A stretch of 62,800 nt of DNA, taken from contig JABIGM010000037.1 in assembly GCA_018650165.1 (NCBI GenBank), forward strand, positions 1-62,800, written 5' to 3'. Below, one piece after another: positions 28,478 through 41,064 of this stretch. Every line of letters starts with the position of its first letter. Position 1 is the stretch's first letter. The notes under the pieces are model-generated. The model was given only the letters and a program-made list of their open reading frames with translations. It ran no database searches and was not told the origin of the DNA. Origin of the DNA: Methanobacteriota archaeon (GTDB lineage Archaea > Thermoplasmatota > Poseidoniia > Poseidoniales > Poseidoniaceae). Both the position numbers and the translations under genes were made by a program.

Positions 28478-29647
28478 TCATTTGTAAGTAAGCCGGATAG
28501 TCATAGATTCAATATCCAAATCATTAACCTTCTCGTTGCGCAAAGTCATAGTCCATTCCCCATCTTTCCAATTGCCTTCACTGAAATGGTAGGAACCGCT
28601 TAATGAGAATATTACACAATCAGTATCTGAATCACAATCGCCACTCTGGCGCTGATCTAAGCCGATTGCACTGGTATTTCCAGCTTCTTCATCGGTAGAA
28701 TTGAAACCATAGAGGTCGAGTTTAGCTCGGCAATTATTGGTATTTGGAATAACGGTACAATCTGAATCTTCCTTGAGATACACTAATTCTCCTTTCGCCC
28801 ACCTAATTGTGTTTCCAGAATCTTGCTCTTGGGTTACTGGGAAACTGAAATCGATATCTACAGGGCTGTTTGATGTATTTCCTGCAATAGAGAAGTCGTT
28901 CCATGTTCCTACATAATTGACATACACTGTGGTTTCATCAGTATTAGACAGACCTGCGCCATTGGTGACCGTTAGAGCGATTTTATACTCGCCTGGTTTT
29001 ACTTCTTTCCAATCAACTGTTTCTCCAGTCAAATCTGCATCATTAGTATAGTCTCCGTCACCATCTTCATCGCGCTCTAGGTCCAAGTCCCAATCCCAAG
29101 TGGAGATGTATTCGCCAGTTCCACCGGCTTCGGAATCTGAGCCATCAAGAGTAATTGTAGTAGTTGCTAGAATATTTTTACTTGACAAACTCCTATCCAT
29201 TTCACAAATATATGCTAAATAGAAACTTCCTGAATTTACATTTTCTCCTTCACAGTCACTCATCGGAGCGTCAGAGCCTGCATCTGCGTTTGGCTCTTCT
29301 GCATCTGCATCGATAATATTGATTGTACGAGTCTGTGTATCTGAAGTAATTGAGTCAGATACTGTGAGAGTTACATCATATGAGCCTGAATCTGGATAAG
29401 ACCAAGTCGCGGTCCTACCTGTTTCATCATAATCTCCATCATTATCGAAATCCCACTTGTAGGTGAGTGATGAACCTGGAGGCAGGGATGCTCCTCCATC
29501 GAATTCAACATCCTCGCCCGAACGAATGTTTTTAGTCGGTTCAAACGAGAAAATTGCTTCTACCTCGCCAGAGGTGGAATCTTCACTAACCGTACAGCCT
29601 GCTAGGCTGGCTGAAATGAACAACAGGGCCATCAATAGGGGCTTCAT
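28478..29647 (-). CDS. PKD-domain lipoprotein
   Basis: Lipobox SLAGC; two PKD-like domains (YKWDFDNDGD...GSYDVTLTVSD; WDWDLD...GEYKIALTVTN). Confidence 0.8.
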   Translation of the reverse strand: MKPLLMALLFISASLAGCTVSEDSTSGEVEAIFSFEPTKNIRSGEDVEFDGGASLPPGSSLTYKWDFDNDGDYDETGRTATWSYPDSGSYDVTLTVSDSITSDTQTRTINIIDADAEEPNADAGSDAPMSDCEGENVNSGSFYLAYICEMDRSLSSKNILATTTITLDGSDSEAGGTGEYISTWDWDLDLERDEDGDGDYTNDADLTGETVDWKEVKPGEYKIALTVTNGAGLSNTDETTVYVNYVGTWNDFSIAGNTSNSPVDIDFSFPVTQEQDSGNTIRWAKGELVYLKEDSDCTVIPNTNNCRAKLDLYGFNSTDEEAGNTSAIGLDQRQSGDCDSDTDCVIFSLSGSYHFSEGNWKDGEWTMTLRNEKVNDLDIESMTIRLTYK

Positions 29648-29702
29648 CACCACAGGGAGGAAACCTCGTCCCATTCAACCCTTGCCCTTCCTGACCCATC
29701 AA

Positions 29703-33363: not shown

Positions 33364-34680
33364 TTAATCCTCAGTCATCCAACGTCCTTGGAATGAGTCA
33401 TCGGTATTATCGATGTGAATGAATAGAGAGAAAGCAGTCCAAACTAATGTGTTGAATCCATCTCCAAGTTGATCTTCACCACCGGCCTTTGCAACCATGA
33501 AGTCGAGATTATCAGTGGGGCTATGCCACTCTTGCCAAAATGATGCATCGCCACCTGCACTGAAGAAGTTGAAAGTAGCATAGCCTTGTGTGAAGAATGA
33601 ACAGTGGTCACTTGCACATGATTCTGCGGCTTCCCAATAGATGTCATTAGCAGCGACATCATGGAAATTCATTTCATCCTCGACAACCAAACGTACCCAT
33701 TCTAGCATGGTTGCTAAGTTCTCATCGTTAGCACCTGCTGTTGCGATTGAGAGGTCGTAAGGCCCATAGCCAGGTGGTGGAATGATTGGGTAGTTCAGGG
33801 ACACCATGTCGAAATTCATATACGCCTTTACCGCCTTACCTTCAGGAAGGTGGTTTACGAATGCTGCACTTCCTAACAATCCTTCTTCTTCACAGGCCCA
33901 TAGTGCTGCTACAACTGTATGGTCCCATTCTCTAGAAGCAATCGCTTGTGCAACTTCCATTGAAACGGTGGAGCCACTAGTATCATCATTTGCACCTTCA
34001 GTAGTTCCTCCTCCTGGTGGAGTGAAGGCGTAACCAACATCAAAATGGCCACCCAATACAATGTATTGGTCTGGATACACATTGCCGTATTTGTAGCCAA
34101 CGACATTCAGTTGGTCTGGGTCATCTTCGTATCTTGTTACTTCAACGAAATCAAATCCATAGGTCTCCCATTCGGTTTTCATAGCCTCGGCTGCATTTTC
34201 GTAACTCTGACCGGTATTACCATCATGAGTTGTAGTAGATGCACACCAGCGATTATTGTAATCAGTGGTTAGCATATCGATTGTATCAAATGCTCTGCGT
34301 CCATCTAAGAACATCATTTCACTACTATCCTCGAGCATCATTGTTGCATTCCATACCTCGTTTCCAGCAGTAATAGTTAGTTCAATATCGGTGCGTTCTG
34401 TATCTAAAACAAGAATTTCTAGTGTGGTTTGTGAGGCTGGGAAAGTCATTTCTTGAGCATCTTTGAACACGCCATCCGCATCGACGAAGAATAAACCTGC
34501 AGACCGATTAGCTGTCCAATCTACATTTGAATCAACTTCGATTGAGAGGAATTGTCCCCGTAGGGCTGTTGAAATATCTTCCACACTAAGACTTGGGTCG
34601 GTCTCTTCAGCCCCGTCCTCGCCAAAACATCCACTAAATGATGCAATGAACAATATTGTTACAATGAAAAAAGCGCGCAT
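33364..34680 (-). CDS. M28-family Zn metallopeptidase, lipoprotein
   Basis: Lipobox FSGC; GGHFD, GANDDTSG, EEEGLLGS, NFDMVS, SDH, HSPTD. Confidence 0.9.
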   Translation of the reverse strand: MRAFFIVTILFIASFSGCFGEDGAEETDPSLSVEDISTALRGQFLSIEVDSNVDWTANRSAGLFFVDADGVFKDAQEMTFPASQTTLEILVLDTERTDIELTITAGNEVWNATMMLEDSSEMMFLDGRRAFDTIDMLTTDYNNRWCASTTTHDGNTGQSYENAAEAMKTEWETYGFDFVEVTRYEDDPDQLNVVGYKYGNVYPDQYIVLGGHFDVGYAFTPPGGGTTEGANDDTSGSTVSMEVAQAIASREWDHTVVAALWACEEEGLLGSAAFVNHLPEGKAVKAYMNFDMVSLNYPIIPPPGYGPYDLSIATAGANDENLATMLEWVRLVVEDEMNFHDVAANDIYWEAAESCASDHCSFFTQGYATFNFFSAGGDASFWQEWHSPTDNLDFMVAKAGGEDQLGDGFNTLVWTAFSLFIHIDNTDDSFQGRWMTED

Positions 34681-34684
34681 AATA

Positions 34685-35968
34685 TCACAACTGACATGGT
34701 TCGAGATGAGTTTTACCATTCATCATTGGTACGAGGCATTTTGGAACTCTAACTCGGCCGTCTTCTAACTGGTTTTGTTCCATTATTGCTACTAGAGCAC
34801 GGCTAGTAGCAACTGCTGTAGAGTTTAGAGTATGAACTGCAGCGTTACCTTCACTTGTTCGGTAACGCATTCGTAAACGATTTGCTTGGTAATCTGTACA
34901 ATTAGAACAGGACACTACCTCTTTGAATGCCTCAGCACCAGGTAGCCAAGCCTCTAAATCGTACTTGCGTGCTGCAACCGTGCCCATATCTCCTGTACAG
35001 ATATTTACGACCTCGTAATGTAGGTCAAGTGCATCCCAAAGGTCTACACAATTTTTCAACAAATCCTCATGATGATCCCATGAATCATCGGGGTGTGTAA
35101 TCACAACTTGCTCAATCTTGGTAAATTGATGAACGCGCCAAATACCACGATCAGAAAGGCCGTGTGCACCGACTTCCCTACGGAAACAAGGGCTGACTCC
35201 TACCAGTTTTATTGGAAGTAAACTCGGTTCAATGACCTCATCCATGTACATCGACGTAAGAGGATGTTCGCTAGTTGCAATCATGTATAGTGGGTCGGGG
35301 GTAATTCCATACATTACTGTCTCGAAATCCGATAGATCAGTAACCCCTTCATATGCATCTCTATTCATCATTACAGGAGGTTGGATGAATGTGAATCCGC
35401 GCCCAATTAAGAAATCTACAGCGTAAGTTTGCAAGGCGAGTTCCAGACGGGCAAGATCGCCTTTTAGGAAGAAGAATCGACTGCCTGCAACTTTTGCAGC
35501 GCGCTCCAAATCCACCCATTTATTCATTTCAATCAGTTCATTGTGAGTCTTTGGTTCAAAATCGAATTGTGGTTTTTCACCATGTAAGGAATGCTGGGTA
35601 TTTCCACCTTCGTCGGCTCCAATTGGAACTGCCTCATGTAGTAAATTTGGAATACGCATTCGAATGCTATCTCTTTCTTCAAGGAGAGAATTTGCTTTCT
35701 CATCAAGTTGTGCAATACGGTCGCCTAAGTCTTTGACTTGAGCCATTATCCTGTCAGCATCTTCTTTGCTACCGCTCTTCTTTGCATCTGCGATACCTTT
35801 TGCAGCAAGATTACGTTCGCGGCGACCATCTTCCATAGACTTGAGAGCATTACGCCACTCCTCATCGATGGCGATTACACGATTGATTCTGTCATGAGGT
35901 ATTCCTCGTTTATCGTGATCGGCACGGATTTTATCCGCATCGTTTCGGAATAACTCCATACTTAACAT
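34685..35968 (-). CDS. serS: Seryl-tRNA synthetase (standard type)
   Basis: N-terminal coiled arm, IATSEHP, CFRREVG..., RVHQFTKIEQ, EVVSCSNCTDYQANRL, TLNSTAVATSR. Confidence 0.97.
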   Translation of the reverse strand: MLSMELFRNDADKIRADHDKRGIPHDRINRVIAIDEEWRNALKSMEDGRRERNLAAKGIADAKKSGSKEDADRIMAQVKDLGDRIAQLDEKANSLLEERDSIRMRIPNLLHEAVPIGADEGGNTQHSLHGEKPQFDFEPKTHNELIEMNKWVDLERAAKVAGSRFFFLKGDLARLELALQTYAVDFLIGRGFTFIQPPVMMNRDAYEGVTDLSDFETVMYGITPDPLYMIATSEHPLTSMYMDEVIEPSLLPIKLVGVSPCFRREVGAHGLSDRGIWRVHQFTKIEQVVITHPDDSWDHHEDLLKNCVDLWDALDLHYEVVNICTGDMGTVAARKYDLEAWLPGAEAFKEVVSCSNCTDYQANRLRMRYRTSEGNAAVHTLNSTAVATSRALVAIMEQNQLEDGRVRVPKCLVPMMNGKTHLEPCQL

Positions 35969-35977
35969 ATAATCACC

Positions 35978-38203
35978 TCAGAACGAAATACCAAACTTGA
36001 ATGCTGCACTACCTACGAAGATTAGTCCTCCGACAATGTATCCCAGAATTGCTCCACCGTTTAGCAATGGTAGTCCGGCCTGTGGCCTACCAGATGCAAC
36101 ATACCCCATCAGGACCAAGTATCCTACAAGACCACCGATGAGCGCTGCAATTCCCACCGCCAGCCCATCAGTCGGTATCGAGTCAACACATGATACAACT
36201 AACATGCCAGGGAAGATAACATCTCCAAGACCCATGAACATTGCTTCCTTTGGCTTCTTTCTCTTCGTTGGCATAACGGCAGCAGAACCATTCGATGATC
36301 TGTTTGCCTGTTCTGCATCGGAAGGTGGACGGATGCTCTCCTTTCCTTCAAGCATTGAATAGCCACTTTCTTGCGGTGCGACTAAAAGAATAGGTAAATT
36401 AAGGCCAATCATTGTATCTGCAAGGTCTAGCATATGCTTAGAACGATAAACAGCCCAAGCATCATAAACAGCAGCTAATATCATGAAGATAACTATCAGA
36501 GTTGGAACGAATGTTACTCCAAGCATCACGATTACACCGCCGCCAACAAGGACGCCTACTGTGTTTACCACATACCACTCTGGGTGGAAAATTAGTGCTG
36601 CCATTAGAATAACTGCTAAAATAAATCCAACTAAGAATGCTGTATCAGACCATTGAACACCATAGGTATTGTACATTGTTTCTGAATCAAAAGCTCCAGT
36701 CTGAATTTCCATTGTATATTGGTTCATAGTTTCATTAATTGTTCCAGTATGAATTACTGTAATATCCCAATCCTTTGCTGAGATTATGCTCTCACTGGAA
36801 ACTGCAATATCAAGTGTAGCGTATTCGATTAAGGACGGCCCGAATAGGCCATGTACTCCATCGGCATCTGCAATCCACAATTCATTTTCTTCATTTTTAG
36901 TCAAGTCAAAACTATTGATTGCAGTGATTGGCCCGGAGAATACATCGCCGCCATGGAATTTATCTTCTTCGTCGAATGTTCCGACCGGCTCTTCGATTTC
37001 ATCATCGATAACATATGCCTTGACCGCTCCATCATAATAGCCAATCATTGCCAAGGATTCATCGGTACCCCAGGGGCTACTAATAATTTCAAAGGCGGTG
37101 ATAAGATTGTCATCTTCAATATATTCGACCCACTCAACAGTACACTCATCGACCCAGCCGCTAGGAGCTGGCCCGGGGATATGCGGGTCTGAAGTTTCTT
37201 CCAAATGTATCATTGCCGCCCCTATTGGAGTTACGAGTAGTAAACTATCTTCGTCATATTGTTTCATCTCTAATATTTTCTCATTTAGTTGCAATTGTGG
37301 ATATGACCATTTTGCCTGATGAATTGTAATATTAGTTTGATGGAATGTATTTCGGCGTAGCAATTCATTACCTGGGGTGATAATGTAAATCGCTCCTTTC
37401 GATTCATTCAAATCTCCAACAGGGTTTTCAACAACTTCTAAAGCAGCAATACAACCATTAATTTCGGGATTTGTAGTAATATTATCGACTGTTCCATCCC
37501 ACTCAGAGTCATCAAAACAAGCGTATTTACTGAGGATTTCACCGCTGTCTTTGTCAAAAGACCAAATCCATGCGCCATTGGTAACAGTGTACGCATATGT
37601 TCCTTCAATTACATTGAAAGTAGGGTCTCCTGGTATCGAGTTAAGTTCAAGTGACCATTCTAGAGATGTATCTGCAGAACGTTTTGAGATTACGAAAGTG
37701 TGATTTTCATGGCTATTTCTCCAATTTGTAATTTGCGTAATCATGGTTCCATCAGTATTTAGTGAAACAATTTCTTCTCCAATTTGTTCACTTTCGGTCA
37801 ATACAAAAGCCTCGGTTTCTATTTCAGGGATCAAAAGGATGTGTGCTCCTGGAACAGTAGTATAGCAAAGTGCGAGGAAGAGAACGAAGAGTAATCCATA
37901 CTTGATTACCTTCTCCAAATGTTTTTTTGCCAACCACAAAATGACAAAGGTAAATGCAAAAATTGCCAATAATTCAAGCGCTATCCATCGTGCTTGAGTA
38001 GAACCTGATTCACCAAACGCCTGTAAATTTGCTGCATTGAACCAAGGCTGAAGCCAAATCCCTAATGCAATGGTTATTACGAACATGAAGGCCATGCCTA
38101 ACATGCCTGGAGCCTGCTCCATCATATTGGCAAGAAGACTGTCCTCCTTTGCTAATTCACGCTCTACGCGCTTGATTTGGTCCTCTGGCACAGACTCTCC
38201 CAT
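35978..38203 (-). CDS. Presenilin/SPP-type GxGD intramembrane aspartyl protease with a large inserted soluble domain
   Basis: AVYDAWAVYRSKHM (YD), MGLGDVIFPG (GxGD), PQAGLPLLN; ~400-aa hydrophilic insert between TM3 and TM4. Confidence 0.9.
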   Translation of the reverse strand: MGESVPEDQIKRVERELAKEDSLLANMMEQAPGMLGMAFMFVITIALGIWLQPWFNAANLQAFGESGSTQARWIALELLAIFAFTFVILWLAKKHLEKVIKYGLLFVLFLALCYTTVPGAHILLIPEIETEAFVLTESEQIGEEIVSLNTDGTMITQITNWRNSHENHTFVISKRSADTSLEWSLELNSIPGDPTFNVIEGTYAYTVTNGAWIWSFDKDSGEILSKYACFDDSEWDGTVDNITTNPEINGCIAALEVVENPVGDLNESKGAIYIITPGNELLRRNTFHQTNITIHQAKWSYPQLQLNEKILEMKQYDEDSLLLVTPIGAAMIHLEETSDPHIPGPAPSGWVDECTVEWVEYIEDDNLITAFEIISSPWGTDESLAMIGYYDGAVKAYVIDDEIEEPVGTFDEEDKFHGGDVFSGPITAINSFDLTKNEENELWIADADGVHGLFGPSLIEYATLDIAVSSESIISAKDWDITVIHTGTINETMNQYTMEIQTGAFDSETMYNTYGVQWSDTAFLVGFILAVILMAALIFHPEWYVVNTVGVLVGGGVIVMLGVTFVPTLIVIFMILAAVYDAWAVYRSKHMLDLADTMIGLNLPILLVAPQESGYSMLEGKESIRPPSDAEQANRSSNGSAAVMPTKRKKPKEAMFMGLGDVIFPGMLVVSCVDSIPTDGLAVGIAALIGGLVGYLVLMGYVASGRPQAGLPLLNGGAILGYIVGGLIFVGSAAFKFGISF

Positions 38204-38265
38204 GCTTTACACCGAGAGTGAGGGTGGTTTTCTAATCATTGGAGCGCGTGGCCCCTACGGGGCCA

Positions 38266-39930: not shown

Positions 39931-41064
39931 ATGCGCAACCTAAGAATGGTAGTAGTGGCATGTATGCTGCTTCTACCAGGTTGTACTTATTTGGACTCTG
40001 AAGAATCTAAATCTGAAGATACTACTGAAATTGAAGTCGAGATGTTACAAGGTTGTACTGATTCTGAGGCAAATAACTTTGATGAAAATGCTGAAGAAGA
40101 CGATGGGTCATGTGAATATGATGAACCTGAACCTGAACCTGAATTCGGGTGCACTGATTCAGACGCTGAAAATTATAATTCCAATGCGACTGAGGATGAT
40201 GGAACCTGTTGGTTTTTGGAAACAATTCCGTGTAATGGTTTAGTGATTTTATGTCACAGGACCTATGACCAAGTAACCTTCCCCGAAACTCATAACTCAT
40301 TTTCTACTCATGAAGATAACATCTACTATCCCGCTAGTAACCATCGTACTGGTTTCCAAGCGCAATGGAATGCCGGAATGAGGGCTTTCATGTTGGATAC
40401 ACACTATTTGACTACTGCAGATCAAAGTGTCTCCAATGTACGGTTGTGCCATGGTGACTCGGATAGAGGTTTCAGTCCGTGTACATATGGAGCGGTTGAC
40501 CCTTGGAATTGGTTGGGTAATTTAGAATCTGAAATTAATAATGAGGAACGAGATATCGTGACATTGTTGATTGAAAACCATGTTGAAGCAGATCACCTGA
40601 AGGAAATAATGGATGATGTTGGTCTTTCTGACATGATGTATATTCACGAGATGAATGCTGAATGGCCGACCTTGATTGAGTTGATAAATATGGATAAGAG
40701 ACTTGTTGTTTTCTGGGAACAATCTAGTGATTCCACCCATCCCTACTTCCATGATTTCTTAACACATAGTTGGACTACTAATTATGCAGATGAAGATACT
40801 TCATCAATGGACTGTGAACCTTTACGCGGAGATTCTAATCAGGACGCTTTTCATATGAATAACTGGTTAAAGAATCAAGCAGGATTGTCAGACCCCACTC
40901 GTGCGGGTGAAGCAAATAATGTGGACTTCATGGTAGAGAGGGCTATCGAATGTATCGATTCTCATGGAAAGCGCCCGACATTCATTGCTGTCGATTGGTG
41001 GGAAGAAGGCGATGTGGTAGAGGCTGTAAAAAGAGTAAATCTATTGGAATTGGATAGCGACTAG
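39931..41064 (+). CDS. Lipoprotein with two GCTD repeats and a PI-PLC X-domain-like phosphodiesterase
   Basis: Lipobox LLPGC; GCTDSEANNF...DDGSC and GCTDSDAENY...DDGTC; THNSF, MLDTH, LCHG, PTFIAVDWW. Confidence 0.8.
   Translation: MRNLRMVVVACMLLLPGCTYLDSEESKSEDTTEIEVEMLQGCTDSEANNFDENAEEDDGSCEYDEPEPEPEFGCTDSDAENYNSNATEDDGTCWFLETIPCNGLVILCHRTYDQVTFPETHNSFSTHEDNIYYPASNHRTGFQAQWNAGMRAFMLDTHYLTTADQSVSNVRLCHGDSDRGFSPCTYGAVDPWNWLGNLESEINNEERDIVTLLIENHVEADHLKEIMDDVGLSDMMYIHEMNAEWPTLIELINMDKRLVVFWEQSSDSTHPYFHDFLTHSWTTNYADEDTSSMDCEPLRGDSNQDAFHMNNWLKNQAGLSDPTRAGEANNVDFMVERAIECIDSHGKRPTFIAVDWWEEGDVVEAVKRVNLLELDSD

Follow-up and report, generated by a model that had tools for sequence, protein, structure and literature searches.

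Outer domains of intramembrane proteases and a long presenilin homologue

Nicastrin forms the glycosylated ectodomain on the outer face of gamma-secretase, where it has been proposed to block substrates with long ectodomains; it is a separate subunit, with a transmembrane (TM) helix of its own and an alpha/beta aminopeptidase-like fold. In the site-2 protease RseP, tandem PDZ domains, extracytoplasmic and placed between TM helices, serve as a size filter that admits only pre-trimmed substrates. SPPL2a, SPPL2b and SPPL2c are eukaryotic GxGD proteases of the A22 clan with a built-in, glycosylated luminal PA ectodomain, which is N-terminal and of another fold than the domain described here, and the topology of signal peptide peptidase (SPP) is inverted with respect to presenilin and the archaeal presenilin homologues (PSHs). 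In their founding paper, the PSHs were presented as a compact and cofactor-free family (PMC2947513). Here we describe a PSH gene located at positions 35978-38203, on the minus strand, of a 62,800-nucleotide stretch of DNA (contig JABIGM010000037.1 of assembly GCA_018650165.1; hereafter the window) from a Methanobacteriota archaeon of the Poseidoniaceae (Thermoplasmatota; Poseidoniales). The gene encodes a predicted active, single-chain PSH in which the TM3-TM4 loop appears to be swapped for a beta-propeller of approximately 394 residues. The Methanoculleus marisnigri PSH, MCMJR1 (4HYC, 4HYD, 4HYG, 4Y6K), shares with it the family, nine colinear helices, the YD, GxGD and PAL-type motifs, and a single chain without cofactors; however, MCMJR1, at 301 residues, has only a short loop between TM3 and TM4, whereas the window protein has 741 residues with the 394-residue predicted propeller at this position.

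The gene is a single uninterrupted open reading frame (ORF) of 741 aa, as seen from the ORF list and its translation, and is laid out as follows.

35978-38203, minus strand: whole PSH gene with the propeller inserted, stop codon at 35978-35980 (ORF and translation, NF041679, PF06550, 4hyc)
37832-38203, minus strand: residues 1-124, cytoplasmic N-terminus and TM1-TM3 (aligned with PSH 9-88; three hydrophobic segments)
36650-37831, minus strand: residues 125-518, predicted seven-bladed beta-propeller inserted in the TM3-TM4 loop (AlphaFold2 (AF2) model of the insert, Foldseek, VIA-align, and the ratio of non-synonymous to synonymous substitution rates, dN/dS)
36443-36649, minus strand: residues 519-587, TM4-TM6 with the YD motif (aligned from PSH 101 on)
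36461-36466, minus strand: YD motif, Y580-D581, with the first catalytic Asp (Y580 and D581 invariant; coordinates translated)
36242-36442, minus strand: residues 588-654, cytoplasmic TM6-TM7 loop (9 K/R in 67 residues; basic end KRKKPKE)
35981-36241, minus strand: residues 655-741, TM7-TM9 with the GLGD and AGLP motifs (motif invariance, coordinate check)
36221-36232, minus strand: GLGD motif, G658-D661 (G658, L659, G660 and D661 invariant; coordinates translated)
36068-36079, minus strand: AGLP, PAL-type motif, A709-P712 (A709, G710, L711 and P712 invariant; coordinates translated)

As judged from sequence comparison, the 741-aa protein is a true member of the PSH/presenilin family (MEROPS A22) with intact catalytic motifs. 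It scored 205.7 bits against the NCBIfam equivalog model of archaeal PSHs (NF041679; cut-off 125) and 160.3 bits against Pfam PF06550 (cut-off 23.9; E = 9e-47), and among solved structures it matched only the M. marisnigri PSH (4hyc, 301 aa; E = 2e-29). This last match came in two pieces, residues 34-115 aligning with PSH 9-88 and residues 521-731 with PSH 101-294, and because it splits at PSH 88/101 the insert sits exactly between TM3 and TM4. The core contains nine hydrophobic segments colinear with the solved PSH; both catalytic Asp residues (YD in TM6, GxGD in TM7) align to the corresponding 4hyc motifs, while P707-Q-A-G-L-P712, ahead of TM9, aligns with PQAGLP of 4hyc. Invariance of the motif residues was scored over 30 homologues. 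PSH and presenilin have a long cytoplasmic loop to which the TM6-TM7 loop corresponds. Since the N-terminal residues are conserved among homologues, the annotated start codon is supported. No second PSH locus was found in the source genome, which is 80% complete; therefore, the long form must carry the normal role of the family.

An earlier reading of the window made from its letters alone (the sequence-only reading) had proposed a presenilin-type protease with intact YD, GLGD and AGLP motifs, interrupted between TM3 and TM4 by an acidic, beta-rich insert with sequons and three Cys residues. The protein is indeed a genuine homologue by NF041679, PF06550 and 4hyc, the three motifs are present and invariant at verified coordinates, and the insert is confirmed, its borders being placed at 36650-37831 instead of at about 36660-37850.

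The insert: predicted fold, membrane side and selection

Short orthologues have a TM3-TM4 loop of about 5-11 residues, and across 44 short PSHs from the phylum it measures 5 to 21 residues, versus 394 here. The insert is acidic (pI 4.05; 72 D+E vs 15 K+R) and contains five N-x-S/T sequons (N167, N241, N266, N291 and N490) and three Cys residues (229, 251 and 354). It was modelled alone by AF2 with an alignment of 21 orthologous inserts from three families. The resulting model has a mean predicted local distance difference test score (pLDDT) of 82.7 and a predicted template modelling score (pTM) of 0.82, with 28 strands and nearly no helix, and the same insert strands were reproduced in a full-length model. 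Foldseek retrieved beta-propellers exclusively (DDB1-BPB, BamB, YncE and Sec12; E down to 7.5e-9; template modelling score 0.4-0.54). When the model was aligned exhaustively to 48,161 chains with VIA-align, the matches, all of them 7-bladed WD40-type propellers, reached Z values of 14-16.3 at a root mean square deviation of 4.2-5 over approximately 280 residues that span model residues 1-390. Based on this modelling, the insert is a strongly diverged seven-bladed beta-propeller.

The features of the insert to which we refer below are these.

36845-36934, minus strand: residues 424-453, GPI...D-x(8)-ELWIADADG-HGL, FG-GAP-like blade remnant (best-conserved stretch of the insert)
37697-37705, minus strand: sequon N167-H-T (a sequon at this column in 15 of the 21 inserts, three families)
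37451-37519, minus strand: Cys229...Cys251 loop of 23 residues containing N241 (probable disulfide-stapled surface loop)

The insert reached no Pfam gathering score; the best match, to the BBS7 propeller (PF23743), gave 17.1 bits vs a cut-off of 27 and covered protein residues 368-464. At E <=0.05 this family matched 6 of the 21 inserts, and FG-GAP_3 matched one of them. No internal sequence repeat was detectable in the Poseidoniales insert (self-hhalign <1%). Near-invariant columns cluster within residues 424-453 (G424, P425, I426, D433, W443, I444, G449, H451, G452 and L453).

The best Foldseek match, DDB1 BPB (2B5N; E = 7.5e-9; template modelling score 0.44-0.51), is a seven-bladed propeller that is itself inserted in another domain, with adjacent termini, a geometry suited to loop insertion. 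It belongs to a cytosolic eukaryotic scaffold, and because identity amounts to 8-9% the likeness is one of fold only. With respect to nicastrin, likeness is limited to position and possible role, since the window domain is in cis, all-beta and a predicted propeller. No nicastrin or M28 family was found at E <=1 in Pfam and NCBIfam searches of the 741-aa protein, nor any nicastrin chain among the Foldseek and VIA-align matches listed. A structural likeness to nicastrin is thus unsupported, the domain being a predicted seven-bladed propeller with no Nicastrin/M28 Pfam match, and the nicastrin-like gatekeeper in cis of the sequence-only reading would hold as a functional analogy only.

Presenilin topology comprises nine TM helices with the N-terminus inside (PMC2947513). 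Because three helices precede the insert and the N-terminus is inside, the insert should lie outside. The distribution of charges agrees with this placement, K+R making up 17 of the 114 residues of loops predicted to be inside vs 1 of the 32 residues of short loops predicted to be outside, with 3 K/R in the TM2-3 loop (KKHLEKV) and none in the TM1-2 loop. Over the 21 inserts, 131 sequons were observed vs 70 expected from shuffles, i.e. a 1.9-fold enrichment. C251 is invariant in all 21 inserts; its partner C229 occurs in 14, while the other 7 have a Cys at an alternative column, and never are both present. The C229 partner is the pattern of the host genus, the alternative column that of the other families. 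In the model, C229 and C251 flank the consecutive strands E223-228 and E253-258, and the overall Cys pattern would fit a disulfide with a relocated partner. Taken together, the charge distribution, sequon enrichment, conserved Cys and colinear helices strongly suggest that the propeller is almost certainly outside the cell, where it is probably glycosylated and disulfide-bonded. As regards the two ways in which the insert could have failed to be an outer domain, namely by being cytoplasmic or by being unstructured, the features above agree with the outward loop of presenilin topology, and structure prediction with fold search returned a folded propeller and not a disordered linker. The anatomy as a whole, a PSH core with an external propeller in its TM3-TM4 loop, we consider very likely.

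Four inserts of another Poseidoniales family (f3; L012, L014 and L015 among them) have an adjacent Cys pair (ADCCSGGSN; columns 394-395 of alignment A2) in the loop of an FG-GAP-like blade. These inserts hold 4-8 Cys overall, which suggests additional disulfides in this lineage.

In unsaturated pairs, the insert had dN/dS values of 0.08-0.20 and the core had values of 0.05-0.07; those of the insert indicate that it is maintained by selection. All long forms examined but one have an uninterrupted reading frame. The exception, a Poseidoniaceae gene (G044:C1:108510-109666), appears split inside the insert into two adjacent frames (416 and 354 aa), possibly by a frameshift or an error of assembly. 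Contigs from seawater metatranscriptomes cover parts of core and insert at >=99% identity, and one of them bridges the insert/TM4 junction; in such RNA-library contigs DNA carry-over is possible, and the gene parts left uncovered carry no meaning.

Distribution and origin of the insert

We scored 934 homologues, of which the best 120 have a similar length, and the relatives were labelled Candidatus Poseidoniaceae or Poseidoniales, including a MGIIa-K1 bin. A profile of the insert matched 248 of 401 Poseidoniales genomes. By family, the insert was found in (i) 183 of the 199 genomes of the host family, in all 12 genera, (ii) both genomes of family f2, and (iii) 62 of the 199 genomes of family f3, where six genera account for 62 of 63 genomes and seven genera for none of 136. 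In these seven insert-less genera the PSH is 354-465 aa long, with 7-11 residues between TM3 and TM4, and genomes are small (1.3-1.6 Mb at >90% completeness). The check across archaea that the sequence-only reading had called for therefore shows the layout to be standard in most of the Poseidoniales, with propeller-type inserts in the same loop in other Thermoplasmatota, as detailed below.

Long and short PSHs occupy the same locus (Lhr ... dCMP deaminase, a FolC-like gene divergent from PSH, then PSH and the gene below).

34685-35968, minus strand: seryl-tRNA synthetase (SerRS), 9 bp downstream of PSH (Pfam; neighbour of long and short PSH order-wide)

Synteny with SerRS was seen by tblastn in 7 of 8 Poseidoniales loci, the exception being the f2 genome G027, and the syntenic neighbours across the examined loci are housekeeping genes only. 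On the other side, the gap to the divergent FolC-like gene is only 35 bp (38204-38238), with PSH starting at 38203 and the TTG codon listed as the start of its neighbour at 38239; translation of the FolC-like gene probably begins further downstream.

In a tree of the membrane core, the Poseidoniales PSHs form one clade and the short forms a single clade nested among the long f3 forms, with support of 85-93 in the Shimodaira-Hasegawa-like approximate likelihood ratio test (SH-aLRT). The placement of the short forms as sister to all long Poseidoniales forms was unrejected by the approximately unbiased (AU) test (p = 0.46). As all three families have long forms and only part of one has short forms, a single loss of the propeller within one Poseidoniales family appears the most economical account; this conclusion rests on family assignment and synteny, the gene tree alone being insufficient proof.

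Outside the order, the Poseidoniales insert profile gave no convincing match in some 300 further genomes of the phylum, two marginal 55-residue matches lying in other proteins, and a search of 1.84 billion representatives with the insert only returned the same architecture or fragments alone and no free-standing donor. PSHs of the sister class are short. The PSH profile is nevertheless interrupted at the same position in four other families, in ORFs of 593-753 aa. A search for long relatives of a short PSH retrieved 584 database proteins, many of 550-750 aa; many of the 584 come from metagenome-assembled genomes of Thermoplasmata or Methanomassiliicoccales, with recorded FG-GAP, BBS7, BBS2 or Itfg2 matches. 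In all of the 86 further long PSHs examined (81 database proteins and five f35, f37 and f42 genes), an insert of 252-402 residues lies at the TM3-TM4 site.

The inserts of f35, f37 and f42 display FG-GAP-like motifs and sub-threshold FG-GAP or BBS7 Pfam matches. These FG-GAP-bearing PSHs (f35, f37, f42 and P0146-P0222) share with the window protein a large insert at the identical site, which in their case is propeller-type by Pfam, but they contain repeats and many have recorded FG-GAP, BBS7 or BBS2 matches, in contrast to the Poseidoniales insert, which is repeat-less with sub-threshold matches only. Internal repeats are strong in the FG-GAP-type inserts (98.6%, with a period of approximately 46 columns). 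Using larger alignments, hhalign matched FG-GAP-type and Poseidoniales inserts with a probability of 67-81% (E = 1e-5 to 5e-5) over one or two blades (GPI...ELWIADADG), homology over the full insert length being beyond this match; small-alignment profile comparisons (A2/A3, A2/A4 and A3/A4) gave probabilities <4%. The atlas neighbours of the insert were FG-GAP clusters with a score of 0.78, which is below the level counting for anything beyond a lead. In family f18 (L064-L070; G423, G433, G440, G445, G450, G455 and G465), PSHs of 593-670 aa carry in the TM3-TM4 loop an insert of 271-338 residues, for which no profile similarity to Poseidoniales or FG-GAP-type inserts was found.

In the core tree, which is unrooted, a long branch (0.82) separates the Poseidoniales PSHs from those of other Thermoplasmatota; the long and short states need two changes only, with support of 89-91 for the relevant branches. 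On sequence grounds, the Poseidoniales propeller is probably a strongly diverged descendant of an FG-GAP-type propeller in the same loop, and a single ancient insertion is plausible. The recurrence of propellers at one loop in other Thermoplasmatota suggests that position matters. Among short-loop PSHs, the TM3-4 loop of some ORFs of families f28 and f46 (L042, L046 and L047) is preceded by 230-400 residues, pointing to a long N-terminal extension or to an over-extended start call.

Several further genes of the window were noted. An M28-family peptidase of 451 aa (33364-34719, minus strand), with a lipobox-like N-terminus (…FSGC), lies two genes downstream of PSH and shares 35 bp with the end of the SerRS gene. 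The nicastrin ectodomain is M28-like; as a nicastrin-like partner, this peptidase was rejected because it was absent beside PSH in all 10 other genomes examined. At 39931-41064 (plus strand), a protein of 377 aa has a lipoprotein-like signal and the repeated motif CTDS-x-A-x-N(F/Y)-x(3)-A-x-(E/D)DDG-(S/T)C, with no Pfam match; a genome from another genus has a homologue of 62% identity in this position. A PKD-domain surface protein is encoded near PSH at 28478-29674 (minus strand). It would be pure speculation to name single-pass surface proteins of the window, including those with a Trp-rich tail, as candidate type I substrates of the PSH.

Possible function of the outer domain

In the arrangement that we propose, the N-terminus would be cytoplasmic, TM1-TM3 would cross the membrane, the propeller would stand outside on linkers of 12-15 residues, and TM4-TM9 would hold the catalytic pair and the AGLP motif. 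In substrate-bound gamma-secretase, the substrate helix docks among TM2, TM3 and TM5. Because the propeller is tethered at the outer end of TM3, bordering this docking face, it would lie over the substrate-entry side, and it would govern which type I membrane proteins get to the active site. It could do so as a size filter, substrates with large ectodomains being sterically kept out as by nicastrin or the PDZ pair of RseP, or as a platform on which particular ectodomain stubs dock. The RseP PDZ pair is the closest mechanistic precedent for a gate in cis; RseP is a metalloprotease of bacterial hosts, its filter has the PDZ fold, and there is no homology to the window protein. By analogy with these systems, we put control of substrate access by the propeller, as gate or docking site, at somewhat less than an even chance. 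The wider proposal, in which a propeller inserted once into the TM3-TM4 loop of PSH, early in the evolution of the Thermoplasmatota, works as an in-cis gate or exosite, we regard as doubtful.

Several observations weigh against such control. In the full-length model the core has a pLDDT <50 (residues 545-741), and the placement of the propeller over the entry site rests on analogy. The dN of the insert is ~1-4 times that of the core, which would suit a looser role too. Seven genera do well without the propeller, and therefore a PSH does not as such need the domain in order to function. No physiological substrate is known for any PSH (PMC2947513), and MCMJR1 cuts substrates without an ectodomain or a cofactor (PMC2947513).

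A role in binding or anchoring (to the S-layer, a glycan or a partner), or as a sensor of an external ligand, with no say in the choice of substrates, would draw on the general use of beta-propellers as interaction platforms, the fold neighbours BamB, DDB1-BPB and Sec12 all being scaffolds. FG-GAP-type relatives in the same loop elsewhere also fit a binding module, as does a surface that evolves fast while the fold is kept, as expected of one that tracks a partner. However, no conserved neighbour gene hints at a partner, the syntenic genes being housekeeping ones, and the recurrence of inserts at this single loop is left unexplained; we consider such a role unlikely. The propeller could also serve folding, stability or oligomerisation in a thin, S-layer-covered envelope, without any recognition. 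Purifying selection is seen, yet across families the surface is invariant at few positions (4 columns among the 21 inserts), and short forms occur in streamlined genomes of 1.3-1.6 Mb, both of which would suit a structural part. This account is nonetheless improbable, since the canonical PSH of ~300 aa is stable and active alone (4hyc; PMC2947513), and 394 residues make a costly stabiliser in small genomes.

Were the insert a neutral passenger, i.e. a decaying domain without present function, its lack of a detectable repeat or of a Pfam gathering score and its loss in seven genera without apparent harm would be readily understood. The dN/dS values, the frame kept open in all long forms examined but one, the confidently predicted fold, and the conservation of Cys and sequon between families of only 16-19% identity make this very improbable. 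Finally, the insert GC (0.396) is slightly under that of the core (0.447), as might be seen with a mis-assembly, an erroneous fusion, an intein or a mobile insertion. We rejected an artefact, intein or mobile insertion on account of the same in-frame layout in hundreds of independent assemblies and in single-cell genomes. In addition, an RNA-library contig bridges the insert/TM4 junction, the predicted fold is a propeller and not a Hint or endonuclease domain, the insert keeps to a single site throughout the order, and no intein, homing-endonuclease or transposase family was found in the Pfam search of the 741-aa protein, so that the likelihood of this explanation is negligible.

Our literature searches found no paper describing a PSH with a propeller in the TM3-TM4 loop; the combined architecture is already visible in database domain tables. 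The host group is among the most abundant archaea of the surface ocean, and the processing of their envelope proteins is unexplored. How presenilin-type proteases choose their substrates is a long-standing question, gamma-secretase having four subunits and the substrates of PSHs being unknown. The phylum-wide recurrence of inserts suggests that function is concentrated at the TM3-TM4 loop as a hot spot. A PSH with an ectodomain in its single chain would make it possible to test directly whether substrate access in this enzyme class is set by an outer domain, and the natural orthologues without a propeller at the same locus offer a ready comparison. If an early propeller insertion did come to work as a gate or exosite in cis, Marine Group II orthologues with and without it would differ in the ectodomain length or the identity of the proteins that they cut.

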